A stretch of DNA of 64,000 bases from an uncultured delta proteobacterium (GTDB lineage: Bacteria > Myxococcota_A > Polyangia > Polyangiales > Polyangiaceae): NCBI GenBank assembly GCA_963696385.1, contig CAVOKF010000007.1, positions 1,024,001-1,088,000 of the forward strand. The letters are read 5' to 3'. A program made the translations under genes and the position numbers. Of the stretch, positions 216 through 19,531 are shown one piece after another. Below the pieces are notes generated by a model. That model ran no database searches. It saw only the letters and a list, made by a program, of their open reading frames with translations, and had not been told where the DNA came from. Within the stretch, counting starts at the first letter, position 1, and each line of letters starts with the position of its first letter.

Positions 216-1985
216 TCAAGAACCGGTCACCGAGGTAGAACGGCCTGCAAGCTTCCATGGGGCGATGGAGAATGCACGGTGGTCCACGTGGAGCCGAAGC
301 AAGTGCTCGGCGGCCGCGTCTTTGAATGACGGGGGCGTCGTGACAACGACCCCGATTCGGCGGAGGATCCGCGACAAAGACAAGGCGAGCCATTCGCCTC
401 CCGCGAGGAATGGCTCCATGCGGTGCCGATTGTGCAGCCATATCTGAGCGCAGGCAGCGGCGGCGTGAAGGGCGCACGCTCGTTCGGCGAACTCGAAGAG
501 CTCGGGAGCTTGCGCGTCGAGGACATCCCGACAGCGTGCGAATGAGGCGTCCTCTTCGCGCATCGACCGATCGAGCGCATCGCCGAGCGACGCCAGGACG
601 CGCACGACGGCGCGCTCGACCCCGTCAAGCCCCGCTGGGTTCCGCAGTCGCTCGAAAAAAAGATCAAGCCCGAGCTTCGGGTCCCGGAGGCGCGCGTAAG
701 GCCGCAGTCGGCCAGGATCGAACCCCGGGAGAGTTTGATCGAGACTGAAGATCGAACCAAGAATCTCGGCGAAGTGCGCCCTTTCAGAGGCGCTCGCACC
801 GGAGCGGAACATAGCGACCTGAGACAATCCCATTCCCACGGTTTGCAACAGCATGAAGCCGCCGGCATGAAACATCGGCACGGCGCCGTGGTCGCGCACG
901 ATCTTCTGGAAGATCCCGAACCGTGGCCCTTCTCTCAGATACGACCTCGCCCCGAGGATCTCGCCGAGGCTTGCGAGCATGCGTTCCACCGTCGTAGGAA
1001 CGAAGGCCTTGCAGGCGGCCGACCAAAAACGCATTTCCTCCGGGGCCATATGCAACGCCCGCGCAGAACCCACCACGACGCACTCGCACACGAGCAAATC
1101 GATGAAAGCGTCGACGAGGAACGCGCGCGGCCGGGGTAACGCGAAGACGGTCGTCCCCTGGAGTCGCCGATGCGCCGCGAAGTCCACCACCGTCCTGAGC
1201 GCGGTGTCGGCCGCTCCAAGCGACAGCGCAGGCAGGAGCGCTCGAGTAATTTGGAATGAACGCAGCGTGAGCTCCATCCCCTCGCCGAGACGGCCGAGCA
1301 ACGCGTCGGCGGCCAGCGGCGCGTCAGTGAAGCGAAATGCGCCGAAGTCGGCGCCTCGCGCCCCGTGGGTCTTGAGACGCGGGAGCTGCGCGAAGTTATC
1401 GTCCGGCAATTTGCGCTTATCGACGAGAAACAACGAGAAGCCACGGGGACCGCCTTTCGGGTCCGTCCGAGCAAACACGGTCTGCACCTCGCCGCGAGTC
1501 GCGTTGTTGACGAACCACTTCTCGCCGGTCAACCGGTACCCGCCGGTGACCGGGATGCAGGTCGTCTCCGTGGCCAGGAAGTCACTGCCGTGCGCCTGCT
1601 CGTGATAGGCGAGGCCCATTCGGCCGCCCGCGGAAATATGAGCGGCGATTTCTCGCCGCTGAGTCGGCGACCCGGCCGTCCACACGTGAACCGCCCCTCC
1701 GAACGTGATCTGATGGGCGATCGCGGCCGTGAGATCGCGACGGCCGACCGCACGGAGGATCCCGGCAAGCTCCGGGTAGCTCGACAGCCGGCCGCCCTCG
1801 GCAACCGGGACGTAGTAGCGGCCAATGCCCAGATCGTCGAGCAACGCGGACGCGGCCTCCGGATAAGCGTCGCGCTCGTCCAAGTCCAAGCCGCGAGCAA
1901 ACGACAACGGTTGGTTCGGGTCGTTGGGATCGCCCAGCTGCTCTTCGAGCGATTCATGGGCTCGCTGCAGCCCCGCTTCCCACAT
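216..1985 (-). CDS. Acyl-CoA/acyl-ACP dehydrogenase family protein (ACAD-1)
   Basis: ACAD motifs LAYHEQAHGSD, LTGEKWFVNNA, KTHGARGADFG, LGARSYLRE. ATG at 1985 chosen because it lies just after the ACP stop at 1990; the ORF track starts at 2048. Confidence 0.88.
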   Translation of the reverse strand: MWEAGLQRAHESLEEQLGDPNDPNQPLSFARGLDLDERDAYPEAASALLDDLGIGRYYVPVAEGGRLSSYPELAGILRAVGRRDLTAAIAHQITFGGAVHVWTAGSPTQRREIAAHISAGGRMGLAYHEQAHGSDFLATETTCIPVTGGYRLTGEKWFVNNATRGEVQTVFARTDPKGGPRGFSLFLVDKRKLPDDNFAQLPRLKTHGARGADFGAFRFTDAPLAADALLGRLGEGMELTLRSFQITRALLPALSLGAADTALRTVVDFAAHRRLQGTTVFALPRPRAFLVDAFIDLLVCECVVVGSARALHMAPEEMRFWSAACKAFVPTTVERMLASLGEILGARSYLREGPRFGIFQKIVRDHGAVPMFHAGGFMLLQTVGMGLSQVAMFRSGASASERAHFAEILGSIFSLDQTLPGFDPGRLRPYARLRDPKLGLDLFFERLRNPAGLDGVERAVVRVLASLGDALDRSMREEDASFARCRDVLDAQAPELFEFAERACALHAAAACAQIWLHNRHRMEPFLAGGEWLALSLSRILRRIGVVVTTPPSFKDAAAEHLLRLHVDHRAFSIAPWKLAGRSTSVTGS

Positions 1986-1989
1986 GCTT

Positions 1990-2265
1990 CTATCCGGCCA
2001 GCGAGTCGGCGACGTGGCCATTGGCGAGCGCGTGGGCAACGGCCCCAATCGTGGGGTAGTCCCACGTGATCAACGCATCGACCTCGATGCCGAATGCATC
2101 GGACAACTCACTCGCGAGCGTCACCGCAACGAGTGAACTCAAACCGAGGTCCTCGAAGGCGGTCGACGGTCCCACGGTCGCCACGTCGACGCGCGCGAGG
2201 CGAGCCACGGCGGCAATCATCCATTCGCGCAGCGCTTGTTCGGTCGGCGGCTCTTTTATCGTCAT
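1990..2265 (-). CDS. Acyl carrier protein
   Basis: 91 aa with FEDLGLSSL (phosphopantetheine Ser) and WDYPTIGAVA; coupled to both flanking ACAD genes. Confidence 0.9.
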   Translation of the reverse strand: MTIKEPPTEQALREWMIAAVARLARVDVATVGPSTAFEDLGLSSLVAVTLASELSDAFGIEVDALITWDYPTIGAVAHALANGHVADSLAG

Positions 2266-3944
2266 CAGCTTCCTCCACTATCGCAGTCGGCAAAAAGCGA
2301 AAAGGAAACGCGGCGATCGGTGGCGTCGAGGATGAATTCCAGCAGACGCTCTCGACATCCCTGAGCCGCGCCGGGCGACCATCCCCCTTCGCCCAGTTCG
2401 TGTGCAAGAGAGAGAACGAGCCAATCCCCGGCCGCGATTAGGCCACCCAGCCGAGGCGCACTGTGGACGAAGACGCTCGCCGACAGGGCGGCCGCCGCGA
2501 GGCGCGCGTAACGGCTCGCCAGGTTGACCAGCTCGGGCGTCACATCGAACGGGCCCCGCGGCGCGAGCGACGCCATCTTCGTGCGGGTGGCGTGTGCTGC
2601 GGCCACAACCTGCTCGAGCATCGGTCGAAGAATCTCGGCATGATTGTGTCCGGGCAGATGCGCGAGCGCGTCCCGCGCGACCTCTTCGGCACCATGCACC
2701 CGATGGGCGACAATCGCCAGGCGACGCGGGTCGATCTCGTCGACGGGAACGAGAAGCTGCGCTGCATTCGACGCGAACTCGCCGGTGCTACGGCTGAGCG
2801 CGCTTGCGTGAAGAGCGATGTTGGTCAAGTTCACCAGGGTATTTCCGTCGAATACGCTCAGAATGCCGATGTCTCGCTGAATCTTCTGGAACATTCCCGA
2901 CGCGTCGCCCTCGCGCAGGTAGTGCCTGGCTCCGAAGACGACGCCGAGATCGCGCACCAATCGCTCGGCCGTGGTCGGCACGTGATACTTGAGCACAGAG
3001 GACCAGAAGGTCGCCTGTTCCGGAGCCGCGTGCAGCATTCGCGCACCTGCCAGGGATGCGGCTTCGCAGGCCAGGAGATCCGCGGCGGCTGAGGATAGCG
3101 CGGCGCGGGCGTGGGGGATCTCTAGGACGGTACCGCCGTACAGCGATCGCGATCGCGCGAAGGCGACCACGATCCGCAGCGCAGAATCTACGGCGCCGAC
3201 CGCCACGTTCGCGATGAGCGTCCGCGTGACTGTGAACGTCTTGAGGACGACGGAGAGCCCGGCCCCCGCTCCACCGACGGGCTGGGTAGAGCACGGCGCA
3301 TTCTCGAAGCGAATGCCGCTGATGTCGGCTCCTCGAATTCCGTGGGTCCGGATTTTCGGCAGCGTCGCGTAAGCGCCCTGGGCTTGGCGCTTGTCCAGGA
3401 AGAGCAACGAGAACCCCCGAGGTCCGCCCTCGGAACGGGTGCGAACGAAGACCGATAGGGCCGTTGCCCGCGTCGCATTGTTGATGAGCCACTTTTCGCC
3501 GTTTACCGACAACACAGACGACCCCTCGGCGCGGGTCACGCTCGAAAGCAGGTCACTACCGTTGTGGCGTTCCGTCAGGGCGAGTGCGATCGGCTCTCCC
3601 GCGATCACGCGGGCGGCCACGATCGCTTTCAGGGTCGACACGCCCGCGAGAAATACGGGCAGGGTGCCCAGGCCCGTCTTGCCGTGCGCGACCGCGAGAG
3701 TCACATCTCGGCGCGCGATCGCCCGTTGCATGCAAGCGAGTTCCTCGAAAGAGCGAAGTTCGCCGCCAGCGTGAATCGGAACGTAGTGCTTGCACACGCC
3801 GAGTCGGTCCAGCTCCGCAGCGGCCTGAGCGGGAAACTCCTCTCGCTCATCCAAGCGGACCGCCCACCGAAAACCCAGCGGACCGTCATCGCTCGCGGGA
3901 TCGCCCATCGCCCGGTCGAGCCGGAGCGGGTCGAATGCCCTCAT
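2265..3944 (-). CDS. Acyl-CoA/acyl-ACP dehydrogenase family protein (ACAD-2)
   Basis: LALTERHNGSDL, VNGEKWLINNATR, RTHGIRGADISG, FGARHYLRE, FDGNTLVNL; start overlaps the FAAL stop. Confidence 0.9.
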   Translation of the reverse strand: MRAFDPLRLDRAMGDPASDDGPLGFRWAVRLDEREEFPAQAAAELDRLGVCKHYVPIHAGGELRSFEELACMQRAIARRDVTLAVAHGKTGLGTLPVFLAGVSTLKAIVAARVIAGEPIALALTERHNGSDLLSSVTRAEGSSVLSVNGEKWLINNATRATALSVFVRTRSEGGPRGFSLLFLDKRQAQGAYATLPKIRTHGIRGADISGIRFENAPCSTQPVGGAGAGLSVVLKTFTVTRTLIANVAVGAVDSALRIVVAFARSRSLYGGTVLEIPHARAALSSAAADLLACEAASLAGARMLHAAPEQATFWSSVLKYHVPTTAERLVRDLGVVFGARHYLREGDASGMFQKIQRDIGILSVFDGNTLVNLTNIALHASALSRSTGEFASNAAQLLVPVDEIDPRRLAIVAHRVHGAEEVARDALAHLPGHNHAEILRPMLEQVVAAAHATRTKMASLAPRGPFDVTPELVNLASRYARLAAAALSASVFVHSAPRLGGLIAAGDWLVLSLAHELGEGGWSPGAAQGCRERLLEFILDATDRRVSFSLFADCDSGGS

Positions 3945-5704
3945 CCAGCCTCGACTTCACGAAGGTCCAGACGCTCAAGAACCTCGAACTTGCCAAGCGT
4001 GTGGGCACGCTTGCATGCCTGACGACGAATCTTGCCGCTCGATGTCTTCAGCAAGGTGCCGACCGGCACTACCGCAATGACCGAGGCATCCACCTGGTGA
4101 TCGCAACCGATAGCGCGGCGAACGGCGTCGATGACGTCGCGGAAGGCGGTCGCACTGTTCGAAGGCAACGACCGGCGTTCATTCTCGACCAAGACCGTCA
4201 GGTGCTCACGATGGCCGTCGTCGACCGCGAACGCCACCGCACCGCCGGCGACGATCGAAGGGCTCGCCGATTCCGCAGAGCGCTCGATGTCCTGCGGGTA
4301 AATGTTCCGGCCCGACAGGATGATCATGTCCTTGCGACGACCCACGACATAGAGCTCGCCGCCGCGCACGAAGCCGAGATCCCCGGTTCGGAGGAAGGGA
4401 CCTCGGTCATCGGGCTGCGTGCGTCCACCGAACGTTTCCTTGGTCGCGTCCGCGTCGCCGTAATAGCCCGCGGCAACGCTCGGCCCGGCTAGCCAGATTT
4501 CGCCGATCTCTCCGTCCGGCATCGCCCGGAGAGAATCCGGATCCACAATCACAAGCTCGATGTCGGCGAACGGCACGCCCGAACTGGCAATCGTCCGCGC
4601 CCGTGTCGTGAGCGCATCGGCGTCCCGCAATTCGCCCCGTTCCAGCGCGTCCGCGTCGCAGGTGCGCGGGTGCAGGCGGGTCGCTGAACCTGAGGCCACG
4701 CACAGTGTAGCTTCCGCGAGCCCGTAGCAGGGATGGAAGGCCCCGGCGCAGAAGCCTGCGGGGGCAAACTTGCGTGCAAAGGCATCCAGGGTCGACGGAC
4801 GAATCGGCTCCGCACCGTCGTGAGCGACCCGCCATGAGGTTAGGTCCAGCTCCGTGATCTCCCGGGGCGAGATTCTCTCAACGCAGAGATCGAACGCGAA
4901 GTTCGGCCCCCCGCTGTGGGTCGCCCGGTAACGACTGATGGCGCGAAGCCATCGCACCGGTTTTTGAAGGAATGCAACTGGGGGCATCGCCACACATCGA
5001 AAGCCACCGAAGATGGGTTCGAGCATGCCGTCGACGAGGCCCATATCGTGAAACACGGGGAGCCAGGTCACCGATATGCTGCTGCGATCGTGCCGCCCAT
5101 TCTCATGGATTCGTTGCAGGTTGTTCATCAGGTTGGCGTGGGTGATGACAACCCCCCTGGGGGCGGACGTGGATCCTGACGTGAACTGGAGAAACGCTAC
5201 GGCGTCACGACGTGCACGAGACTCGACCTTCGCATCGGGCCGAGGAACATTGCTGGGATCCAGCACCGGACACAGCGCAAGCGGGGACACGACGGCGGCC
5301 AAATCGTGCACGACGGCCTGCATCTTCCCCGACGCGAGGACCAACGAAGGGCGCGACACTCGCGCGACTTCGTCGATCCGTTCCAAGGATCTCTTGAGTG
5401 GGCGTGAGGGCGGCAAGCTAGCCACCGGAATGACGCCGGAGTGGAGACACCCCAGAAAGGACAGCAAGAAGTCGAGACCCGGTCGGAAGAACAGGATGGC
5501 GCGGTCGCCCACACCCGCATGGCTCCGCACCGCGCTGGAGATAGCGAGCACTCGTTCCGCGAGGCGGGGCCACGACAGCGATTCCGTGAGGACTTCGCCA
5601 TCCTCGAGAAAACTGAACCCCCCGCAGGATTCGTCGCGCGCCCGAGCCAGAAGCACGTCGATAATCGTCTCGGCTTCGAGCACGCGACCGTCGGTGGCGT
5701 GCAT
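3941..5704 (-). CDS. Fatty acyl-AMP ligase (FAAL)
   Basis: AFLQFTSGSTSAPRGV, WLPVFHDMGL, PCYGLAEATL, FLRTGDLGF, GRNIYPQDIE, KTSSGKIRR. Start taken at ATG 5704 (5743 also possible); the longer ORF-track start overlaps the kinase gene. Confidence 0.92.
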   Translation of the reverse strand: MHATDGRVLEAETIIDVLLARARDESCGGFSFLEDGEVLTESLSWPRLAERVLAISSAVRSHAGVGDRAILFFRPGLDFLLSFLGCLHSGVIPVASLPPSRPLKRSLERIDEVARVSRPSLVLASGKMQAVVHDLAAVVSPLALCPVLDPSNVPRPDAKVESRARRDAVAFLQFTSGSTSAPRGVVITHANLMNNLQRIHENGRHDRSSISVTWLPVFHDMGLVDGMLEPIFGGFRCVAMPPVAFLQKPVRWLRAISRYRATHSGGPNFAFDLCVERISPREITELDLTSWRVAHDGAEPIRPSTLDAFARKFAPAGFCAGAFHPCYGLAEATLCVASGSATRLHPRTCDADALERGELRDADALTTRARTIASSGVPFADIELVIVDPDSLRAMPDGEIGEIWLAGPSVAAGYYGDADATKETFGGRTQPDDRGPFLRTGDLGFVRGGELYVVGRRKDMIILSGRNIYPQDIERSAESASPSIVAGGAVAFAVDDGHREHLTVLVENERRSLPSNSATAFRDVIDAVRRAIGCDHQVDASVIAVVPVGTLLKTSSGKIRRQACKRAHTLGKFEVLERLDLREVEAG

Positions 5705-6007
5705 GTGGGTTAGGTACGTCGAAGTCGCCAGACGCGTCAACATCGTCCAGCATTGGCACCCCATCGTGTCGGCGTGGTGGCGGTGCTGTTTCGTCGGCGC
5801 GCCCCGCACACTGCACAAACGTCTGCCGTTGACCCATGGCGGAATGGGTGTCTGATGGGTTTGGTGTGGAAGGCCTGTGCTCAACCTGTGGTGCGCGCTT
5901 CCGAAACAGTTACTGTAGTTGAACCCCCGAGCACGCCGCGTTCGTCCGCGCTGCCCCGGCTGGACTCGTTCCGGACGAATGACCGCGCGAGCAATAGCGG
6001 ACCGCGC

Positions 6008-7630
6008 ATGGACGAGCGCGTCGCCACACAGATCGGTTTGCGGCGCGCGCTCGCGGTCGCCTGCGTCGTGTGGCTTGGATTCATCGGGCTCGATTTCGTG
6101 GTCGTACGATATTTGGACGCCGGATCGTTTGTGCACTTCATCGAGTGGCGTGCCGCGGTACTGGCCGTAACCCTCTTCGTGCTCGTGCGATTGAGTCGAC
6201 GCCCGCCACCGTCCGAGCTGGTTCTGCGGGCCGCGGACGTCCTGGTTTATGGGTCCGGTGCGGTGGCGATCGCCCTCATGTGTGTCGAATTCCGAGGCCT
6301 GGCCAGCCCGTACATTCCCGGCTTCTGTCTCGCGCTTCTTTCACGCACTGTCACGGCTCCCGATCCCTGGAAGCGCGGCGTGACCATGACCGGGATTCCT
6401 GTGCTGTGCTTCTTTGCCGTGCTGTTCGGCGCAGCATTTTTCTCGCCTCGAATTGCCGCGCAGTTTCATGATCCCGGCGCACTCACGACGTTGGTGCTCA
6501 ACGCCGGCTACGTCCTCGGTACCTGCGTGTTTCTCATCGCGGGGAGCCACATCGTATGGTCCTTGCGACGCCAGGTTTTCGAGGCTCGGAGCCTTGGGCG
6601 CTACCGGCTCAAGAGTCGAATCGCTGCCGGCGGCATGGGGGACGTGTGGCTGGCTTACCACCCCGGACTCAAGCGCGACGTGGCCGTAAAGATCCTCCGA
6701 CCCGATGAGCGCGAGCGGTCGGAGATGGCCTTGACCCGATTCGAACGCGAGGTCCGGTCAACCGCGGAGCTCATGCACCCAAACACCGTGCGCGTCTTCG
6801 ACTACGGCGTGACCGAGGACGGACTCTGGTATTACGTGATGGAGTTGCTGGAGGGTGAGACACTGGCAGACCACGTCGCGCGTCTGGGACCGCTGCCCCC
6901 AGCCCGTGCCGTCCACATCGTGGGGCAAGCCGCACGCGCTCTTGGAGAGGCCCACGAGAAGGGGATCGTGCACCGTGACGTGAAGCCCGAGAACCTATTT
7001 CTCACCGCGCTCGGCGGCGAGCACGACTTCGTGAAGGTCATCGACTTCGGCATCGCGAAGGTCCAGAATGTCGATGGCAAAATGACCGATACCGGGTCGC
7101 TCCTCGGAACGCCCGCGTACATGTCGCCGGAGATGGCGATGGGGCTTACGGCCGACGCTCGCTCGGACGTCTACGCGCTCGGCGCGGTCCTTTACTTTCT
7201 CCTGTGCGGCAAGCCGCCGTTCGAGGCCGAGAGCGCGGGCGCCCTCATCTTTGCGCACGTGAACCAGGCCGTCATGCCACCGTCGCAGAATCTTGGGCGA
7301 CCCTTGCCTGGCGACGTGGAGGCCGTTGCCATGCGGGCGCTCGCGAAGGACCCGAACGAACGCTACGCGAGCGCGGCCGAGCTCGCGCTCGCGCTCGCCG
7401 CCTGCACGCTCGCGGGCAAGTGGACCTTCGGGGACGCCACCACGGTTGCTCGGCGCAGCAGCCGCCCGCCCCCTGCCGCTGGGTTGGAGGCGTTTCCGTC
7501 CATGCGCCCTCCACGGGTGCCCCAGTTCGAACAGCCGGCTCTCCGGGATCCGGCGTCCTCCGAGACACCGTCTGGGTCAAACGCAAGCGCGATTGCCGAA
7601 GACGGGCACCGCGCACTCGCGTCGCGATAG
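6008..7630 (+). CDS. Membrane-anchored Ser/Thr protein kinase with multi-TM N-terminal sensor domain
   Basis: About 6 hydrophobic segments, then Hanks motifs AGGMGDVW, VAVKIL, HRDVKPEN, DFG, GTPAYMSPE, SDVYALG. Start uncertain (5855-6008). Confidence 0.9.
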   Translation: MDERVATQIGLRRALAVACVVWLGFIGLDFVVVRYLDAGSFVHFIEWRAAVLAVTLFVLVRLSRRPPPSELVLRAADVLVYGSGAVAIALMCVEFRGLASPYIPGFCLALLSRTVTAPDPWKRGVTMTGIPVLCFFAVLFGAAFFSPRIAAQFHDPGALTTLVLNAGYVLGTCVFLIAGSHIVWSLRRQVFEARSLGRYRLKSRIAAGGMGDVWLAYHPGLKRDVAVKILRPDERERSEMALTRFEREVRSTAELMHPNTVRVFDYGVTEDGLWYYVMELLEGETLADHVARLGPLPPARAVHIVGQAARALGEAHEKGIVHRDVKPENLFLTALGGEHDFVKVIDFGIAKVQNVDGKMTDTGSLLGTPAYMSPEMAMGLTADARSDVYALGAVLYFLLCGKPPFEAESAGALIFAHVNQAVMPPSQNLGRPLPGDVEAVAMRALAKDPNERYASAAELALALAACTLAGKWTFGDATTVARRSSRPPPAAGLEAFPSMRPPRVPQFEQPALRDPASSETPSGSNASAIAEDGHRALASR

Positions 7631-7641
7631 ACCTCGAAAGT

Positions 7642-9387
7642 CTATGACTCGACGTCGAGAAATGCGCACCCGCCGGTGGCATCGTGCTTCACAGTCATGC
7701 GGGACGGTCGAGACCCGAGGGATCGGCCGAGGCGCAGCATGTCGCTTTCCGTGCGGTAGAGAATCGGCCAATCGAGTGCGTATTCCATGATCCACGTCGA
7801 GTCGGGGGCTTCGACCATGTTCCCGAGCAGCATTCTGCCGTCCCGTCGGACCAGCGAGTAGAGCCGTCTCGTGAGACGCTCCGCGACCGGGTCCGGCAAA
7901 TAGTCGTACAGGCCCGTCGAGTAGACGAGATCGAGTTCACCTAAGGTCTCCAGGACCACGGCCTTCTCTTCGGCCGTCCGAGGACTCACTAGCTGCCGCA
8001 CCGAAAAGTGAAGGCAGCGCACGGTTACAGGGAGCAGACCATGGTGGCGCTCCAGAAGGAGGCGAGTGAGTTGGCGGTGCGCCGATTCGTGGGCGGCGCG
8101 ATCCTGATCCAGAAGGATCAATTGGACGGGCCTCTCGAGGCTCTCCGTTTCGTGAAGCCAGCGGCGCAGCTCCATCCCCGGTCCCGCAGCGACCGCCAGA
8201 ACACGCAGTGGGGCCGTCCCCCGTCCGTGCTCCTGGACGGTCCGATGCAGGGCCTCGCGCAAAACCATTTCGCGTGCGACCGCCGCGCGGACGAGGCTCG
8301 ACCGCTGCGAGATCGAAAACAAGAATCGGCCGAAAAGCCCTTCGCCCATGGGCTCATCGGCGAAGCACATCTCCATCATTCGATAGTCCCCCGCGTAGCC
8401 CAGTGGCTTCTCGTAGGCTCGCTTGTTCAACAGGCATGAGGCCAAGAGGGGCATGAGTGTCGACGACGCGTAGCTGCGCCCGAGCAGCGCAGTGCGCTCG
8501 TCGAAGCCCTTGCTCATTTCGTGCAACCGCGTCACGGCCTCGTAGAACCAATGGCCCCAGCGCTGGCCCAGGGCGTCGAAGAGTTGGGCCTCTTCGTCGC
8601 GGCGCCGGAGCGGGTCGTCCGCGCTGACACGCTCGAACTCTTCGACCTCGGCCCGCGCGTCTTCCAGGAGATGGCGGAGATCGCCCACCGCAGCGCGCCA
8701 CTCCGCCGGCAGACGTTCGGCCTGCTCGCGACGGATGGCCAGTCGCCCTTCCAATGTGGCACCGAGTCGAAGGTGATGGATGTCCAAGAGTCCGGACGTG
8801 AACCGAGCGCCGAACCGCTCCGCACTTCCGTGCACCACGACGGCGTCCCCCACCCAGACGGGGCGATCGCCCAGCACGAGCTCGAGCGATTCGAGAACGC
8901 TGCCTGGGGAAAGTGCGGCTTCGTCGGGCGATACCGCCGAGAACCCGGCTGTGCTCAAATCGATCACCTGCAACGGACCGACGGCTGTCCCTTCGCATTG
9001 GAAGCGGCAGACGAGGTCCGCCGGCACCTCAGCCGCGTTGAGGCGCGCGGGCCGGAACGTCACCGCGACGCCCGCCGCACCCTGAAGGTCTTCATGCGCC
9101 CGAGGGGGCCAAGAGCGAGGGGGCGACGACGGATGCTCACGCGACCAAGATGGGGGCGGCGCGGAGCGAGGCGGCGGCGATGCGGGACGCGGCAGCGGCG
9201 ACGAGCGCGGCGGCCGCGAAGAAGGTCGAGGCGGTGGGCGCGGCCGTTCCGTCGAAGGCGGCACCTCATCGGTCGCAAGGTCCCCGCGCACTTCGGGGAG
9301 CGACCGATCGTCGGCCGGATCGTCTGACGCGCTTGGGCTGTCGGCGAACTGCGCGCTACCGTTCGACGCGTCTTCGAAGAGGCTCAT
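7642..9387 (-). CDS. PilZ-like domain + PhcB-like class I SAM-dependent methyltransferase
   Basis: Pro-rich N-terminus; PilZ-type DLSTAG motif; RAYEKPLGYAGDY motif as I recall from PhcB-type proteins; SAM-binding VLAVAAGPGME, LLDQD, DLVYSTGLYDYL, LLGN. Confidence 0.75.
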   Translation of the reverse strand: MSLFEDASNGSAQFADSPSASDDPADDRSLPEVRGDLATDEVPPSTERPRPPPRPSSRPPRSSPLPRPASPPPRSAPPPSWSREHPSSPPRSWPPRAHEDLQGAAGVAVTFRPARLNAAEVPADLVCRFQCEGTAVGPLQVIDLSTAGFSAVSPDEAALSPGSVLESLELVLGDRPVWVGDAVVVHGSAERFGARFTSGLLDIHHLRLGATLEGRLAIRREQAERLPAEWRAAVGDLRHLLEDARAEVEEFERVSADDPLRRRDEEAQLFDALGQRWGHWFYEAVTRLHEMSKGFDERTALLGRSYASSTLMPLLASCLLNKRAYEKPLGYAGDYRMMEMCFADEPMGEGLFGRFLFSISQRSSLVRAAVAREMVLREALHRTVQEHGRGTAPLRVLAVAAGPGMELRRWLHETESLERPVQLILLDQDRAAHESAHRQLTRLLLERHHGLLPVTVRCLHFSVRQLVSPRTAEEKAVVLETLGELDLVYSTGLYDYLPDPVAERLTRRLYSLVRRDGRMLLGNMVEAPDSTWIMEYALDWPILYRTESDMLRLGRSLGSRPSRMTVKHDATGGCAFLDVES

Positions 9388-9550
9388 CTGAACACCATGG
9401 GAAAGGGGGCGGGGTTCCGTGCGCGAGGCAGTGCAACCAGACGCACGCACTTATGCAAGAAGGTACGGTGGTCTCGCCTTGCGAGATAACCCCTATGTGG
9501 TGACTTCTCGGTGACGCCCGCCAAAGGGGGGCGTGTGCATGCGTCAGTCC

Positions 9551-10666
9551 TCACGGGTGCGCGCCGGTACCGGTTGCCGCCACGTCGGTCGCAACCAGAT
9601 CCGCGGCATTCTTCACACCCTCGCGCTCCAGAGTCTCGGCCAGATCGCGCGCGATCCGCGACGCCACGAACGGTCCACCATAGATAAAACTTGTATATAT
9701 TTGGACCAGATCCGCTCCCGCGCGCATGAGATCAAGTGCCTGGTCGGCTGTCTCGACTCCGCCGACCCCGACGACGACGACGCGACGCCCGAGCCGAGCC
9801 CGTATCCGCCGAACCGCCGCAAGGACACGGCTCCGTAGCGGCGGGCCACTGAGCCCGCCGGCGCCGATCGCGTCGAGCCGACCGGTAGGGGTTCGCAGCC
9901 CGTCGCGGGCAAGGGTCGTATTGGTGGCTACGACGCCGACAAGACCCACTTGCTCGACGACGCCGAGGATGTCTTCGAGCCCGCCTTCGTCGAGATCGGG
10001 AGCGATCTTGACGAGCATCTTGCCGCCCGGGCCCAGGGCCTCTCTCAACGCCGTCAGCAGGGTGCGTGCATGCCGCGGCGCTTGCAACGTCCGCAAGCCC
10101 CGTGTGTTGGGCGACGAGACATTGACCACGACGAAGTCGGCGACATGTCGTACTCGTTCGATCGCAGCGACATAGTCGGCGACGACCGCTCGGATGTCTT
10201 CGGGGGGAACCGCGCGAGACTTGCCGATCGAGACGCCGATGGGGATGCCGAGCGACGAGCGAGCCACCCCGAGGCGGGCAGCCACTCGCTCCGCGCCTTC
10301 GTTCGGGAAGCCCAGACGATTGACGAGCGCGCGGTCCGAGGGCAGCCGAAACAGATTGGGCCGCGGGTTTTCGCCCTGGGCCAACGCGGTGACCGTTCCG
10401 ATCTCGAGGTGCCCGAAGCCGAGCGCTGCGAGCGCGCGCGGGCGGTACGCGTTCTTGTCGAAGCCTGCGGCGAGGCCGATCGGCGACGGAAAGGTCAACC
10501 CCATGACGGTCGTCGCGAGGCGGGAATCCTGCGGAGGGCGCGCCACGCATCGCAGCACGGCGCGGAGCGGCGCCACATGCTCGGGGGGCCAGAGTGCCGC
10601 GAAGGCCAACGCATGAGCCGCGTGAGGCGGCAATACGAAAAGGAGCGGCCGCAGCGCGCCGTACAT
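9551..10666 (-). CDS. pyrD: Dihydroorotate dehydrogenase (quinone), class 2
   Basis: GLAAGFDKN, GTVT, NRLGFPNEG, VNVSSPNT, VKIAPDL, ATNTT, GGLSGPPL. Confidence 0.95.
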   Translation of the reverse strand: MYGALRPLLFVLPPHAAHALAFAALWPPEHVAPLRAVLRCVARPPQDSRLATTVMGLTFPSPIGLAAGFDKNAYRPRALAALGFGHLEIGTVTALAQGENPRPNLFRLPSDRALVNRLGFPNEGAERVAARLGVARSSLGIPIGVSIGKSRAVPPEDIRAVVADYVAAIERVRHVADFVVVNVSSPNTRGLRTLQAPRHARTLLTALREALGPGGKMLVKIAPDLDEGGLEDILGVVEQVGLVGVVATNTTLARDGLRTPTGRLDAIGAGGLSGPPLRSRVLAAVRRIRARLGRRVVVVGVGGVETADQALDLMRAGADLVQIYTSFIYGGPFVASRIARDLAETLEREGVKNAADLVATDVAATGTGAHP

Positions 10667-10834
10667 CGCGTTGCGCAGAGCTTACGCCGTCGCTCGCTCG
10701 ATCGCGTCGGGAATCCTGTCGCCGATCGCGGGCGCGACCGGCCCCACTCGGGACCGCGCGCGCCGCGCCTCTGCTATGGTTAGGATTCACGGCGAAGCGG
10801 TCGATCGTCCTGCCGCCGCAAGGAAATCTTCGTC

Positions 10835-11956
10835 GTGATCATCGGCGTCCCGAAAGAAATCAAGACCCGGGAGTATCGGGTCGGAATGACACCCGCGGGT
10901 GTACGCATGCTCGTGTCGCACGGTCACCGGGTGCTCGTCGAGACCGGTGCCGGCGACGGAAGCGGGATTGCCGATGCCGATTACGCGGCGCAGGGGGCGA
11001 CGATCGTCGCCACGGCCGCTGAGGCGTGGGATGCCGCAATGGTCGTCAAGGTGAAGGAGCCTCTGTCGACCGAGCACCGATACTTTCGCAGCGGGCTCGT
11101 ACTCTACACGTATCTGCACCTGGCCGCGGAGCCCGTGCTCACTCGGGCGCTCGCAGCCAGTGGGGTGTCGTCGGTAGCCTACGAGACGATCGAGGCGCGC
11201 GACGGCAGTCTGCCGCTCCTGAAGCCCATGAGCGAGGTCGCCGGCAGAATGGCGGTGCAGGTCGGCGCGACGTGTCTCGAGAAGGAGCGCGGGGGCAAGG
11301 GTGTCCTTCTCGGGGGCGTTCCCGGGACGCGACGGGGGCGGGTCGTCATCTTGGGCGGTGGAATCGTCGGCCGAAACGCGGCAACCATTGCGGTGGGGAT
11401 GGGTGCGCAGGTGACGGTGCTCGATGTCCGAGCAGAAGCGATGGCGTCGCTCGAAGATTTGTTCGGGGGCGCCATCGAGACGCTCTACTCGAATCCGACG
11501 AACGTCGAGGACGCCGTCGTCCGAGCGGACCTCGTCGTAGGCGCCGTGCTCGTCACCGGCGCGGCGGCCCCAAAGCTCGTCACCGAGAAGATCGTGGGCC
11601 GAATGGCGGCGGGCAGCGTGATTGTCGACGTCGCGGTGGATCAGGGCGGCTGCATCGAGACGTGTCGGCCGACCGATCACGATAGGCCGACCTACGAAGT
11701 GCACGGCGTCGTGCATTATTGCGTCCCCAACATGCCGGGAGCCGTGCCGCAGACGAGCACCTGGGCGCTGACGAACGTGACGATCGGCCACGCCGTCGCG
11801 ATCGCCGACAACGGACTTGCCGCCGCCGCGCGCCGAGATGAAACGCTCCTGTCCGGCATCAATACGCTCGATGGCCACGTGACGTACGCACCCGTCGCCG
11901 AGGCGCACGGACTCGAATACGTCCCCGCGCGGCGTCTACTCGGTCTTTTCGCGTGA
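10835..11956 (+). CDS. ald: Alanine dehydrogenase
   Basis: [55 protein letters not shown]. Confidence 0.96.
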
Positions 11957-12717
11957 GCATCCGACCTTCGGCGGAACCCGCCGCGGTCGATCCCGACCTC
12001 TTTCGCGGTATCGACCTGCTTTGCCTCGACGCCGGAAATACCGTCGTGTTCCTCGATCACGCGCGGCTCTCGCGCATTTGCCGGGTGGCGGGTTTCGAGA
12101 CCACGACCGATGCGCTCATCCACGCGGAGGGCGAAGCCAAGCACGCTCAGGAGCGAGGCGCGCTCCTGGAGTTCGAATGGTCCGGATCCGCCGCGCCGTC
12201 GGCCCGTGCATGGGGCGCGTTCGTCGCAACGATGATGGTGAGCGCGGGAGTCCCGCGCGTCGGCGTGCGGGCCGGCGTCGAAGCCGCTTGGATCGAGCAC
12301 GGTCGTCGAAACCTATGGTCGCTCGTGCCCGAGGGTCTCGTTTCCGCCTTGGATCAGGCGCGGGCGGCGGGAGTCCGGATAGCAATCGTGAGCAACTCCG
12401 AAGGCAAGCTCGTGACCCTGTTGAACGACGTCGGAGTCCTGGGCTCGGTCGACGTCGTCGTGGACAGCGGAGTCGTCGGGGTCCAAAAACCCGACCCACG
12501 CATTTTCCAGATCGCGCTCGAACACGTTAACATTCCCGCTTCGCGGGCTCTGCACCTCGGCGACGTCTACGTCACCGACGTCGTGGGCGCACGATCCGCG
12601 GGGCTGCGCGCCGCTCTGGTCGACCCGCTCGGGCACCTCGCAGGACGCCACCTCGACGTGCCGCGCGTACCGGGAGCCGCCGCCGTCCTTCGCGCGATGG
12701 CGGCTGCCCGAGGGTGA
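11953..12717 (+). CDS. HAD-superfamily hydrolase (subfamily IA)
   Basis: LDAGNT motif I, VSNS, KPDPRIF, HLGD..VTDVVGA. Confidence 0.88.
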
Positions 12718-13832
12718 CGCCGGTGTCGACCGCGCCGAAACTCGTGGCGATCATTCCGGGCGACGGCATCGGGCCGGAGGTGACAGCGCAAGCGACCCGG
12801 GTGCTCGACTTCTATGTCGCCGAGCGCGGCCTGCCGATCGCCCTGTGGCCCATCGACCTGGGCGCAGACCGGTATCTTCGCGATGGCGTCGCGCTTTCAC
12901 CCGATGTGCGGGATCGCATATCGCGAGAAGCCAGCGCGGTTCTCCTCGGGGCGCTCGGCGACCCTCGTGTCCCGGGTCACGAGCACGCCCGCGACATCCT
13001 TTTCGGGCTGCGGTTCGGACTCGACCTCTATGCCAACGTTCGACCCGTCCGAGCTCTGAGCGATCGCCTCGTGCCATTGCGGCAGCGAGGCGCCACGGAC
13101 GTCGATTTCGTCGTCTTCCGCGAGAACACCGAGGGCGCCTACGCCGGGATCGGAGGACAGTTCAAGCGCGGGACGCGCGACGAGATCGCGATCGGCGAGG
13201 ACGTCAACACGCGACGGGGTGTCGAGCGACTCATTCGCGCGGGCTTCGAGCACGCGCGGGCGCACCGAAAACGACGCGTGCACATGGCCGACAAATCCAA
13301 CGCCATGCGGCATGCACACGAGCTGTGGCACCGAGTATTCTTCGAAGTGGCCGGCGAATATCCGGAGGTCGAAGCCCAACACCTGTACATCGACGCCCTA
13401 TGTCTCGAACTCGTGCGCGATCCCGCGCAGTTCGAAGTGATCGTGACATGCAACTTGTTCGGGGACATCGTCACCGACCTCGGTGCGGCATTGCAGGGCG
13501 GGCTCGGGATGGCCGCGAGCGCCAACGTTCATCCGCGCGTGCGCGGATGCTGCGAAGCAGACCACCCGGCGACACGCGTTGCCTTATTCGAGCCGGTCCA
13601 CGGCTCGGCGCCGCCTTTGGCCGGCAAGGACGTGGCGAATCCCCTCGCGAGCATTCTAACGGTGGGCTTGCTGCTGTCGCACCTGGGATGGGATGCAGAG
13701 CGGGCGCGGCTCGAATCGATTGTCGTTCGTGCCCTTGGCGAGGGCAAGTGCACGCCCGACGTCGGAGGGGAGCTCGGAACCAGGGCCGTCGGCGATTGGG
13801 TCGTGCATGAGCTCGCACAGGCCTTCGGATGA
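12714..13832 (+). CDS. leuB: 3-isopropylmalate / isocitrate-isopropylmalate family dehydrogenase
   Basis: IPGDGIGPEV, RENTEG, DKSNA, NLFGDIVTDLGAALQGGLG, FEPVHGSAP. Exact substrate uncertain. Confidence 0.8.
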   Translation: MTPVSTAPKLVAIIPGDGIGPEVTAQATRVLDFYVAERGLPIALWPIDLGADRYLRDGVALSPDVRDRISREASAVLLGALGDPRVPGHEHARDILFGLRFGLDLYANVRPVRALSDRLVPLRQRGATDVDFVVFRENTEGAYAGIGGQFKRGTRDEIAIGEDVNTRRGVERLIRAGFEHARAHRKRRVHMADKSNAMRHAHELWHRVFFEVAGEYPEVEAQHLYIDALCLELVRDPAQFEVIVTCNLFGDIVTDLGAALQGGLGMAASANVHPRVRGCCEADHPATRVALFEPVHGSAPPLAGKDVANPLASILTVGLLLSHLGWDAERARLESIVVRALGEGKCTPDVGGELGTRAVGDWVVHELAQAFG

Positions 13833-13965
13833 GTCGCGGCGCGGACGACGACGCATCGGTCGTTTCACCGCGACGGCGCTCGACGGCCGGGAACCGTGGG
13901 CCGTGTCACACTGTCGATCGGAAATGCGGCCGCGAAGCGAACCTCGGCGGGAGGCGGAGGCGATC

Positions 13966-17926: not shown

Positions 17927-19531
17927 TTACGCCGTGGCGCGTTTGAGCCGATCCATCGCCGCCATCAGCTGACGCAGACTTTGCTGCTGGGCACTGGCGC
18001 TGGACTCGATCTTGGCGGCGGAGGCGAGCATCTGTTGACTGCCGGTCGCTTGCGATTTGTGGCTCGTGTTGAGCTGGCCGACCATGCTCGAAATGTTCTC
18101 GATGGCCCCGGAGATTTGACGTCCACCGCGCGCCTGCTCTTGCGAGCTGCGTTCGACGTGCTGCGTGATGATTCGCATTTTCTCGGCACTCTTCATGATG
18201 AGCTCCGAACCACGCGCTTGCTCCGCCGTCGCGGCGGCGATTTGCTGCACGGTTTCGGCGATGCGACCGATGGCGTCGGTCACCTGCTTGCTGCCCTTGG
18301 CTTGCTCCACCGTCGCTCGCGCGATCGCGCGGACCATGTTCGTGCTCTTTTGCGAACTCTCGAGGATTTTTTTGAGCGCCCTCTCCGCTTCATTCGACAC
18401 TTCGACCCCCCGGTCGACGTTGTGCGCGCCGCGCTCGACGGCCGCGATCGCGTTCTTGCTCTCGGTTTGCACGGTCTTGATGAGGTCCGTGATTTCGCGC
18501 GTACTCGCACCGGCACGCTCCGCGAGATCCTTGATCTCGTCGGCGACGACGGCGAAGCCCTTGCCTTGCTCGCCCGCTTGCGCGGCGATGATGGCGGCGT
18601 TCAGGGCGAGCAGGTTCGTCTGCTCGGCGACGTCATCGATGACGTTCACGATCTGCCCGATGGCCTCGATGCGCGATCCCAGCGTCGAGATGACCGAAAC
18701 CGCCTCCTGCGAGCTCTCCTTGATGCGATAAATCTCGCTGATCGTCTTGAGGATGGCTTCGGCGCCCTTCTCCGCATCGAGCGCCACTTCCTCGGAGAGT
18801 CGGGCCGTCTCGTTGGCGTTACTCTGCACCTGGTCGATCGAGACATCCATTTCATTCATCGAACTGCTGGTCTCTTCGGCCGTGAGCGAGAGAGCATCGA
18901 CGTTCTTCGCCACCTCCTTGATGGAGTACGCCATCTCTTCGATCGAGCTGACCGTCTCGCGCACGCTTCCTGCAAGCTCGCCGACGTTCTCGGCCACCTC
19001 GTCGTTCGTCGCGGTCATCTCGAGGATCGAGCTCGACGATTCTTCTGCGCTCTGCGTGAGAGCCTCGATGTGCGCTGCGATTTCGTGAACGGACTTGGTG
19101 AGCTCCCGGATTAGACGCGACGTTTCCTCGACGGCTGCCACCTGGCCCTGCACGTTGGCGTCGAGACGGTGGGCGCTGTCCTCGAGCGTGCGATCGTATT
19201 CGCTCATTTGCGCGCGGCACGCCACGAGTTCTTCGCGATCCTTGCGGCGCTGGTCGCTCAGGTCGCCCAGCAACTGGTACAGTTGCAGCGTGTCGCCCGC
19301 CGCCTCAGCCGGGACATCCGGGCGCTCGCCGGAAGACGCGCGCCGCGCCGCATCGACGACCCTGTGAAGCGAAGCCGGCGCCCCCGCCGTACCGCTCAAT
19401 GCAATCGCGATGAGCCCCACGATGGCGACGCCGAAGATTCGAGGACCCGCGTCCCGAGCGAGCAAGGCGCCACCGGCTCCTGCCAGCAACATCGCGAGCA
19501 TGCCGAACAGTTGTTTGGGCGACAGGGTCAT
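17927..19531 (-). CDS. Methyl-accepting chemotaxis protein
   Basis: [42 protein letters not shown] signalling hairpin; two N-terminal TMs with almost no periplasmic loop. Confidence 0.95.

Follow-up and report, generated by a model that had tools for sequence, protein, structure and literature searches.

The window analysed here, a stretch of 64,000 nucleotides whose first letter is position 1 in all coordinates below, is part of contig CAVOKF010000007.1 (1,024,001 to 1,088,000, forward strand) of an uncultured delta proteobacterium of the Polyangiaceae (assembly GCA_963696385.1). It carries a gene for a putative receptor serine/threonine kinase (6008..7630, plus strand) and, convergent with it on the minus strand (7642..9450), a gene for a PhcB-like methyltransferase dependent on S-adenosylmethionine (SAM), with 11 bases between the methyltransferase gene and the kinase stop codon. 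Histidine kinases and cyclic-nucleotide enzymes are known to have membrane-embedded sensor modules in common, whereas bacterial Hanks kinases are usually described with sensor types of their own. A model that read this DNA without database searches (the original prediction) had proposed that the first ~195 residues of the kinase resemble the membrane sensor PhcS and that the same lipid-binding input module has been joined to a different output chemistry. In this text, we summarize the evidence on the descent of the module, on its linkage to PhcB-like genes, and on the signaling pair which the two genes may form.

The receptor kinase and its membrane module

The kinase gene encodes a protein of 540 amino acids (P0001), defined by a stop-free translation, the Pfam domain Pkinase, and a TAG stop codon at 7628-7630. 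Four parts can be distinguished, all on the plus strand: an N-terminal membrane sensor module of six helices, assigned to a divergent MASE8/PhcS type on the basis of hydropathy, an AlphaFold2 model, hhalign, and residue counts (residues 1-190, 6008..6577); the juxtamembrane exit of the sixth transmembrane helix (TM6) together with a short linker, recognized by alignment to PhcS and by conservation counts (residues 184-198, WSLRRQVFEARSLGR, 6557..6601); a Hanks-type kinase domain, recognized by Pfam, by a PknB-like NCBIfam model, and by invariant columns in 87 sequences of the family (residues 199-454, 6602..7369); and a C-terminal tail which in translation is rich in proline, serine, and alanine and has no Pfam match past residue 454 (residues 455-540, 7370..7627). 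The strings on which the original prediction was built (GLDFVV, IEWRAAV, GLASPYIPGFCLAL, and ARSLGRY) are all present in the protein. Pkinase matches residues 199-454 with an E-value of 9.6e-43, and since it begins at residue 199, the linker from the last helix to the kinase is only about ten residues long; the membrane part does run straight into the kinase, as had been noticed.

The kinase domain has the Gly-rich loop, the lysine of the VAIK motif, the glutamate of helix alphaC, and the HRD, DFG, and APE motifs of Hanks-type kinases, and its catalytic set is complete (K228, E248, H322-R323-D324, N329, D346-F-G348, P374-E375, D387, and R452). Among the 87 sequences, K228, E248, H322-R323-D324, D346-x-G348, P374-E375, and R452 are invariant, and F347 and N329 are nearly so. 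Judged by these residues, the kinase output is catalytically intact. A Pfam scan found no output other than the Hanks kinase domain after the module, and the HisKA and HATPase_c domains of a Phc-type sensor are lacking. The protein resembles PknB, which carries PASTA domains, and PknD, which carries a beta-propeller, in having a complete, membrane-tethered Hanks domain; PknB and PknD, however, span the membrane with a single helix and carry their sensor domain outside the cytoplasm, whereas the sensor of the window kinase is polytopic, intramembrane, and located N-terminal of the kinase domain.

Hydropathy analysis gave five strong 19-residue peaks (within residues 13-38, 40-63, 71-96, 123-151, and 157-186). 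An AlphaFold2 model of the module, built with ten orthologues (mean predicted local distance difference test score, pLDDT, 72.6; predicted TM-score, pTM, 0.60), contains helices at about residues 2-36, 41-64, 70-95, 102-112, 120-145, and 156-189 and thus adds a short fourth helix to the five peaks, so that six membrane helices result, in agreement with the approximate number in the original prediction. Read directly from the sequence, about 15 lysine and arginine residues are distributed over the N-terminus, the second and fourth loops, and the stretch that follows TM6, compared to two or three in loops 1, 3, and 5, and according to this positive-inside distribution both termini are cytoplasmic and there is no periplasmic domain. 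The polar residues noticed within the membrane could be specified as D29 in TM1 and R48 in TM2, both of which occur without exception in 87 of 87 diverse members, and a polar turn, G97-x2-S100-x-Y102-x2-G105, is located between TM3 and TM4.

Neither Pfam nor NCBIfam assigned a family to the module, and the ESM Atlas held no structure for the 540-residue kinase. A homologue search with residues 1-197 yielded 130 proteins at E<=1e-3, and the best 120 of these 130, which are 52-100% identical to the module over residues 1-197, all possess kinase domains according to Pfam. When 1.84 billion cluster representatives were searched with a profile built from ten module sequences (A2), 296 matched at E<=1e-3; of these, 186 still did so at 1e-10 and 44 at 1e-30. 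In 118 of the best 150 of the 296 representatives, a kinase domain directly follows the module; the remaining 32 are mostly fragments ending within or shortly past the module, and in four longer ones among them no Pfam family was found. The number of relatives places the module far above chance, and it is a conserved family which at this level of similarity is always fused to a kinase. Two members, P0245 (828 residues) and P0253 (838 residues), consist of a kinase domain, the six-helix module, and a second kinase domain, and could be either genuine receptors with two kinases or pairs of fused gene calls.

The conservation of the module bears on the possibility that the six helices, derived from a sensor family, have lost sensing and serve merely as an anchor or dimerization device. 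The absence of a periplasmic domain, loops of only 4-12 residues, and the lack of a known ligand agree with such a role. On the other hand, the module is no less conserved than the kinase domain (51-82% identity in nine related loci, all from metagenome-assembled genomes of Polyangiaceae or Myxococcales), and an anchor would need neither the invariant buried charges D29 and R48 nor the turn residues S100 (77 of 87) and Y102 (66 of 87). We therefore regard a mere anchor as improbable.

Relationship of the module to PhcS and the MASE8 family

A tblastn search against plasmids led to an operon on a plasmid of Paraburkholderia graminis which encodes a methyltransferase, a sensor kinase, and two response regulators and thus resembles phcBSRQ. 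The phcBSRQ genes are described as conserved in Ralstonia pickettii and Cupriavidus, with PhcB producing and PhcS sensing 3-hydroxy fatty acid methyl esters (PMC2864759, PMC2842291, PMC7694676), and PhcR is described as a response regulator that contains a kinase domain (PMC2842291). The sensor kinase of the Paraburkholderia operon belongs to the PhcS family; 91 relatives were found, many of them named PhcS, and the Pfam family MASE8 is precomputed on 88 of these 91, including proteins of R. pickettii with 51% identity.

Alignments of 87 full-length kinases of the window type and of 49 full-length PhcS proteins were compared by hhalign and matched with a probability of 94.7% and an E-value of 6.1e-8 over 175 collinear columns (13% identity), residues 2-192 of the kinase being aligned with residues 14-189 of PhcS. 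A second comparison, of 216 kinase modules with 88 N-terminal regions of PhcS, gave 89.4% and an E-value of 2.1e-6 over 152 collinear columns. When one of these profiles was reversed, the E-value rose to 0.18-0.19, and when both were reversed the match was restored (1.3e-5). Shuffling of columns, either within windows of 10 or 20 columns, which preserves local hydrophobicity, or over all columns, gave best E-values of 0.043, 0.057, and 0.21, respectively, in 20 trials each. Positions that are invariant within the two families coincide in the alignment (kinase/PhcS: D29/D42, R48/R57, M91/M98, G97/G104, S100/S107, G105/G112, R187/R184, and Q189/Q186), and at the exit from the last helix R187, Q189, and F191 of the kinase align with R184, Q186, and F188 of PhcS. 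The aspartate of TM1 and the arginine of TM2 are present in 87 of 87 kinases, 49 of 49 PhcS proteins, and 27 of 27 non-kinase myxobacterial modules. The pattern D...R...G..SPYY.G..L, which the original prediction had given for PhcS-like sensors, proved real: D42, R57, G104, S107, Y110, and G112 are found in all 49 PhcS proteins, and one myxobacterial histidine kinase encoded next to a PhcB-like gene reads G..SPYYAG..L.

The two families are also connected by intermediates. Beside PhcB-like genes of Myxococcota, we found open reading frames (ORFs) of about 900 codons which begin with a six-helix module, weakly matched by the kinase-module profile, and continue as HisKA-HATPase-REC and a second kinase-like part. 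A profile of only three sequences, the membrane parts of such PhcB-adjacent hybrid histidine kinases (bridging profile A7), matched PhcS with a probability of 98.7% and an E-value of 2.1e-16, and the serine/threonine kinase family with 99.1%, 1.6e-18, and 25% identity. In plain searches of fetched loci with hidden Markov models (HMMs), the membrane parts of two of these hybrid kinases (loci L012 and L013) were matched both by the PhcS model (2.5e-13 and 6e-12) and by the kinase-module model (2.8e-14 and 3.6e-18), and the A7 model matched the window kinase at 3.9e-5. One myxobacterial GGDEF protein with a bridging module (L033) passes the MASE8 cut-off, and in two genomes (G307 and G051) MASE8 matches lie at the same places as A7 matches, which identifies the bridging family as a divergent form of MASE8. 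In a language-model search from which kinase clusters were excluded, MASE8 was the first named family (score 0.89), which we take as a lead only. Leads from the Atlas also hint that the kinase-fused module might occur outside Myxococcota, namely in Gemmatimonadota.

Several results count against membership of the window module in MASE8. Pfam MASE8 (PF20968) gave nothing at E<=10 on residues 1-200, so that the curated cut-off of 26.2 bits was not reached, and the family is absent from the 25 Pfam families shown for the 87 family members. A search of the own genome for MASE8 found no match, and no PhcB- or PhcS-specific NCBIfam model matched. Comparisons with a single PhcS protein were blind (hhalign probability 0.2%, BLASTP E-value 29); the relationship is thus visible only by family-versus-family profiles.

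Structure comparison was suggestive but not decisive with respect to the fold. With Foldseek, no PDB structure matched the module model at E<=0.001; the sole match of high probability (0.91, TM-score 0.55) was ImcA of Pseudomonas aeruginosa (8wcn_A), a cyclase consisting of a 6TM domain (L47-E231) and GGDEF (PMC10904736). Structural re-alignment gave 173 aligned residues for 8wcn_A (Z 10.5, root mean square deviation, rmsd, 4.0) and 168 for adenylyl cyclase 9 (AC9; 7pd4; Z 10.1, rmsd 4.5), with the next match at Z 7.4. A search independent of Foldseek listed AC9 (6r3q; Z 9.4, rmsd 4.5, 164 aligned), adenylyl cyclase 5 (AC5; 8sl3; Z 9.0, rmsd 4.3, 175 aligned), and ImcA (8wcn_B; Z 8.9, rmsd 4.1, 173 aligned) as the only top rows spanning the whole model, and these Z-scores are near the values of unrelated helical proteins. 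In sequence, the module profiles matched 8wcn only with E-values of 0.24 and 1.6; no significant sequence match thus accompanies the likeness to ImcA and the adenylyl cyclases, which also differ from the window kinase in their output domain, although myxobacterial relatives of the module are likewise fused to GGDEF and class III cyclase domains. The membrane part of one such relative (L040) matches the Pfam family AC_N at 1e-5. AC_N is the membrane region of animal adenylyl cyclases, and this match fits the structural matches of the window module to the membrane domains of AC9, AC5, and adenylyl cyclase 8 (AC8).

The low identity of 13%, the missing Pfam match, and the Z-scores of 8.9-10.5 might suggest that the resemblance to PhcS reflects hydrophobic composition and a common six-helix layout instead of common descent. 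Against this stand the profiles in which composition was preserved by reversal or local shuffling, whose E-values were 0.04-0.27 compared to 2e-6, the intermediates which tie both families at 1e-16 to 1e-18, the coincidence of six family-invariant positions, and the fact that both families independently adjoin homologous methyltransferases, so that we consider an artefact of composition very improbable. The window module also has the structural features of the MASE8 family, namely six helices, no large periplasmic loop, and conserved intramembrane polar residues. On the strength of the profile comparisons it is a divergent member of this family of six-helix sensors, which forms the sensing part of PhcS in Ralstonia and Cupriavidus. 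The PhcS-type resemblance proposed for the first ~195 residues is therefore upheld by hhalign with its controls, by the bridging profiles, and by the HMM cross-matches, while the Foldseek comparison suggested in the same place added no significant match.

The PhcB-like methyltransferase and its linkage to the sensor

The gene facing the kinase encodes 602 amino acids and was identified by BLASTP, by the naming of its relatives at the JGI, by a structural model, and by Foldseek, without a match in Pfam or NCBIfam. It aligns with the methyltransferase of the Paraburkholderia operon (BLASTP E-value 1e-33, 27% identity over 490 residues), and about 49 of 120 listed relatives, counted by eye, bear the JGI description 'extracellular factor (EF) 3-hydroxypalmitic acid methyl ester biosynthesis protein'. 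The N-terminus of the protein is proline-rich; the model (pLDDT 86.5) comprises a beta-barrel, a region of helices, and a Rossmann fold of class I, and by Foldseek resembles small-molecule methyltransferases. The class I methyltransferase fold with the SAM-binding motif VLAVAAGPG (residues 415-601, 7648..8208, minus strand) was assigned from the model, Foldseek, and an alignment to P0390. The beta-barrel of six strands (residues 146-217, 8800..9015, minus strand; residues 6-77 of the model) has no Pfam match; from its shape and a DLSTAG motif we presume it to be PilZ-like. In comparison with PhcB of the Phc system, the proline-rich N-terminus is an extra part. In the segment 8800-9450 (minus strand), the N-terminal ~140 residues, rich in proline and serine, vary in length among relatives, and the PhcB-like protein of Paraburkholderia likewise begins with a beta-rich segment.

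In eight of the nine related loci, the kinase gene is convergent with an orthologue of the window methyltransferase gene, and the ninth, L006, has a more distant PhcB-like gene immediately downstream in the same orientation, so that the pair of kinase and PhcB-like gene is found in all nine as well as in the window. In an indirect check of co-location, the longest contig of 39 out of 119 kinase clusters had the same size as that of one of 120 listed methyltransferase clusters. In the own genome (6.9 Mb, eight contigs), module and PhcB-like gene are each present in a single copy, and a search with the bridging profile found no histidine kinase carrying the module.

A survey of 401 Myxococcota genomes showed how widely the components are distributed: the kinase-type module (A2) occurs in 15, Pfam MASE8 in 9, the bridging module (A7) in 169, and the PhcB-like protein (profile A5) in 97 genomes. 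None of the MASE8 matches adjoins a PhcB-like match. At 57 of the 80 places in these genomes where a PhcB-like gene was found at E<=1e-40, an A7 site follows within 300 bases on the same strand (median gap 69 bases), and at ten more it lies within 7 kb. The remaining 13 have no A7 site among those listed; they include the window's own, whose partner is the serine/threonine kinase, and two where an HMM search placed the module just downstream. All 11 PhcB-adjacent A7 kinases that were scanned with Pfam are hybrid histidine kinases; ten of them read 6TM-HisKA-HATPase-REC followed by a second kinase-like part, and one (L015, an ORF of 636 codons) has only 6TM-HisKA-HATPase-REC (examples of the cassettes are L012, 2110-6608, L013, 2139-7606, and L014-L017). 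As PhcB-like genes are followed by a module-bearing histidine kinase in 57 of 80 cases, the serine/threonine kinase form appears as a variant of a Phc-like cassette. We found no paper linking Phc to Myxococcota, nor one on the cassettes of PhcB-like genes and 6TM hybrid histidine kinases in this phylum.

Compared with these cassettes, of which L012, L013, and L018 are examples, the window locus belongs to the same phylum and has the same sensor module (99.1% probability), and the cassette methyltransferases of two genomes (G284 and G066) match the full-length profile of the window type (X602). The output of the cassettes, HisKA-HATPase-REC-HisKA-HATPase, resembles PhcS fused to PhcR, whereas that of the window is a Hanks kinase, and their genes are mostly co-directional, whereas the window pair is convergent. 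With PhcS of Ralstonia, Cupriavidus, and Paraburkholderia, the window kinase shares a six-helix sensor of ~190 residues without a periplasmic domain, the aspartate of TM1, the arginine of TM2, the turn G-x2-S-aromatic-G, the exit R-x-Q-x-F, and a neighbouring gene for a PhcB-type methyltransferase. It differs in the output, which in PhcS consists of a coiled coil and HisKA/HATPase and in the window kinase of a Hanks domain ~10 residues past TM6, in the divergence of its module from the Pfam MASE8 model, which recognizes the PhcS sensor, and in gene order, the PhcS system being an operon. Receivers of the PhcR or PhcQ type were searched for in the neighbourhood, and none of 13 products scanned between 216 and 20520 contains Response_reg, the search being confined to this part of the genome.

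One locus of genome G245 (L018, C24:184000-203000) contains both receptor types between 5299 and 13921. Two kinase-fused modules are encoded at 5299-7020 (minus strand) and 8107-9810 (plus strand), a 6TM hybrid histidine kinase at 9798-12401 (minus strand), and a PhcB-like gene at 12401-13921 (minus strand), whose frame end abuts the start codon of the histidine kinase. Loss of the histidine kinase from this locus would yield the arrangement of the window.

In a quick maximum-likelihood tree of 62 modules, all 25 kinase-fused modules fall on one side of a branch with a support of 100 in the Shimodaira-Hasegawa-like approximate likelihood ratio test (SH-aLRT), and the ten PhcB-adjacent kinase modules form one subclade with a support of 99; a module in an ORF cut at the locus edge (L043) falls outside the kinase clade. 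This single clade indicates that a PhcS/MASE8-type sensor was joined once to a serine/threonine kinase. Outside the kinase-fused group, the kinase-module HMM scored best with two hybrid kinases of genomes G066 and G284, whose PhcB-like neighbours are those that match the X602-type profile over the full length.

Further genes of the window might contribute to a signaling pathway. Divergent from the kinase gene, a fatty acyl-AMP ligase (FAAL) is encoded at 3941..5764 (minus strand; Pfam AMP-binding and NCBIfam FAAL models), whose start is uncertain (methionine at residue 125, 132, or 145 of the ORF), and downstream of it two acyl-CoA dehydrogenase-like genes were identified by Pfam (216-2048 and 2265-3944, together 216..3944, minus strand). 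Among the nine related loci, the ligase is present in L001 only, and the dehydrogenase-like genes are present both in L001, singly in L003 and L009, and not in the other six; as they are kept only in the nearest relatives, we count them as possible accessories only, which may supply or tailor the acyl precursor. About 10 kb downstream of the pair, a methyl-accepting chemotaxis protein is encoded at 17927-19531 (minus strand), and housekeeping genes for a dihydroorotate dehydrogenase, an alanine dehydrogenase, a HAD hydrolase, an isocitrate/isopropylmalate dehydrogenase, and a GlmS-like protein lie in between. Of the sampled words, 43-92% are present in DNA runs that carry the label soil metagenome (study P1) or simply 'metagenome' (P2).

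A candidate pair of signal synthase and receptor kinase

The best explanation for the locus as a whole is probably, though with considerable reserve, that the MASE8-type receptor serine/threonine kinase and the PhcB-like methyltransferase constitute a Phc-like pair of signal maker and signal sensor. In such a pair, the product of the methyltransferase would be a hydrophobic methyl ester, which would partition into the membrane and bind inside the helix bundle near the side of the outer leaflet, where the topology places D29 of TM1, R48 of TM2, and the turn G-x2-S-x-Y-x2-G. A resulting movement of TM6 might be passed via the R-x-Q-x-F exit and the ~10-residue linker to the N-lobe of the kinase and alter autophosphorylation, probably through dimerization. 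The output would then be phosphorylation of serine and threonine residues, replacing the His-Asp relay of the PhcS-PhcR-like hybrid kinases in most other Myxococcota cassettes. In their mode of action, receptors of the CqsS/LqsS type provide a parallel, in which a six-helix bundle senses a hydrophobic autoinducer in the membrane; such a receptor is reported to be able to take the place of the 6TM anchor in an adenylate cyclase, which brings the enzyme under the control of the ligand (PMC4821796).

A number of observations weigh against this assignment of synthase and sensor, and most of them would equally be expected if the module were a true MASE8-like sensor of something unrelated to the methyltransferase, such as another lipid, a state of the membrane, or a partner protein, in which case the adjacency of the genes might mean, for instance, that the kinase has the methyltransferase as its substrate or regulatory target, or might be inherited gene order. 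A PhcB-like match is present in only 2 of the 15 genomes with a kinase-type module (the own genome and G245) and missing in 13, and the fetched flanks of 13 more distant kinase loci contain no PhcB-like gene. The original prediction had suggested linkage to phcB-like genes as a check, and this linkage was thus upheld in the window and the nine related loci and failed in the distant ones. The pair is convergent, with a gap of 11 bases, and hence neither an operon nor under a shared promoter. Furthermore, the module is promiscuous with respect to outputs. Among 24 sampled ORFs with an A7-type module (the loci include L032-L047), 12 continue as GGDEF, 8 as hybrid histidine kinases, 2 as plain histidine kinases, and 1 (L046) as a class III nucleotide cyclase, and 1 is cut by the locus edge; modules with GGDEF and cyclase outputs are located away from PhcB-like genes, and only 68 of the 150 A7 sites listed lie within 7 kb of such a gene. 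From the presence of the module alone, it therefore does not follow that the ligand is a PhcB product, and in terms of the original prediction it is of the PhcS type without being specific to PhcS. The transmembrane regions of ImcA are reported to be required for binding of a partner protein (PMC10904736).

Two further points likewise limit the case for the pair. In the tree of 62 modules, no particular non-kinase group came out as sister to the kinase clade. Short contigs from RNA libraries match both genes: for the kinase they cover 7240-7490 in the 3' portion of the gene (library X13), and for the methyltransferase 9108-9435 (X10) and 9108-9333 (X13) in the 5' portion, with no more than one mismatch and one inserted base. 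Apart from a few further pieces of about 20-30 bases, RNA cover is absent elsewhere, which proves nothing; the two libraries are metatranscriptomes of one study, and these contigs are a weak hint of expression of both genes which may be due to DNA carry-over.

An unrelated ligand is nevertheless rather unlikely in our view, since the pair is kept in ten of ten members of the subclade at module identities of 51-82% while the flanking genes change, since indirect evidence for co-location exists for 39 further clusters, and since a homologous module directly follows PhcB-like genes in 57 of 80 cases in the same phylum. With regard to the proposal that the same lipid-binding module had acquired a different output chemistry, the homology of the module and its Hanks-type output are borne out, whereas binding of a lipid and the direction of the swap are inferred.

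If the kinase and the methyltransferase form a synthase/receptor pair, the kinase may be the first receptor for a cell-cell signal with a Hanks-type serine/threonine kinase output. It is conceivable, and we put this forward only tentatively, that a lineage of the Polyangiaceae kept the PhcB-type synthase and swapped the His-Asp relay for a fusion of a MASE8-type sensor and a kinase, so that lipid methyl esters derived from dense populations or from neighbours would be read as serine/threonine phosphorylation, with the locus of G245 as a surviving intermediate. What is new here is the presence of a PhcS/MASE8-type sensor on a Hanks kinase and its retention beside a PhcB-type synthase. Phc-like synthase/receptor cassettes are common in Myxococcota, as judged by the 97 of 401 genomes with a PhcB-like gene and the frequency with which a sensor directly follows it, and for the serine/threonine kinases of myxobacteria, a very large family mostly without known ligands, the locus provides a concrete candidate source of a ligand in the form of one neighbouring gene.

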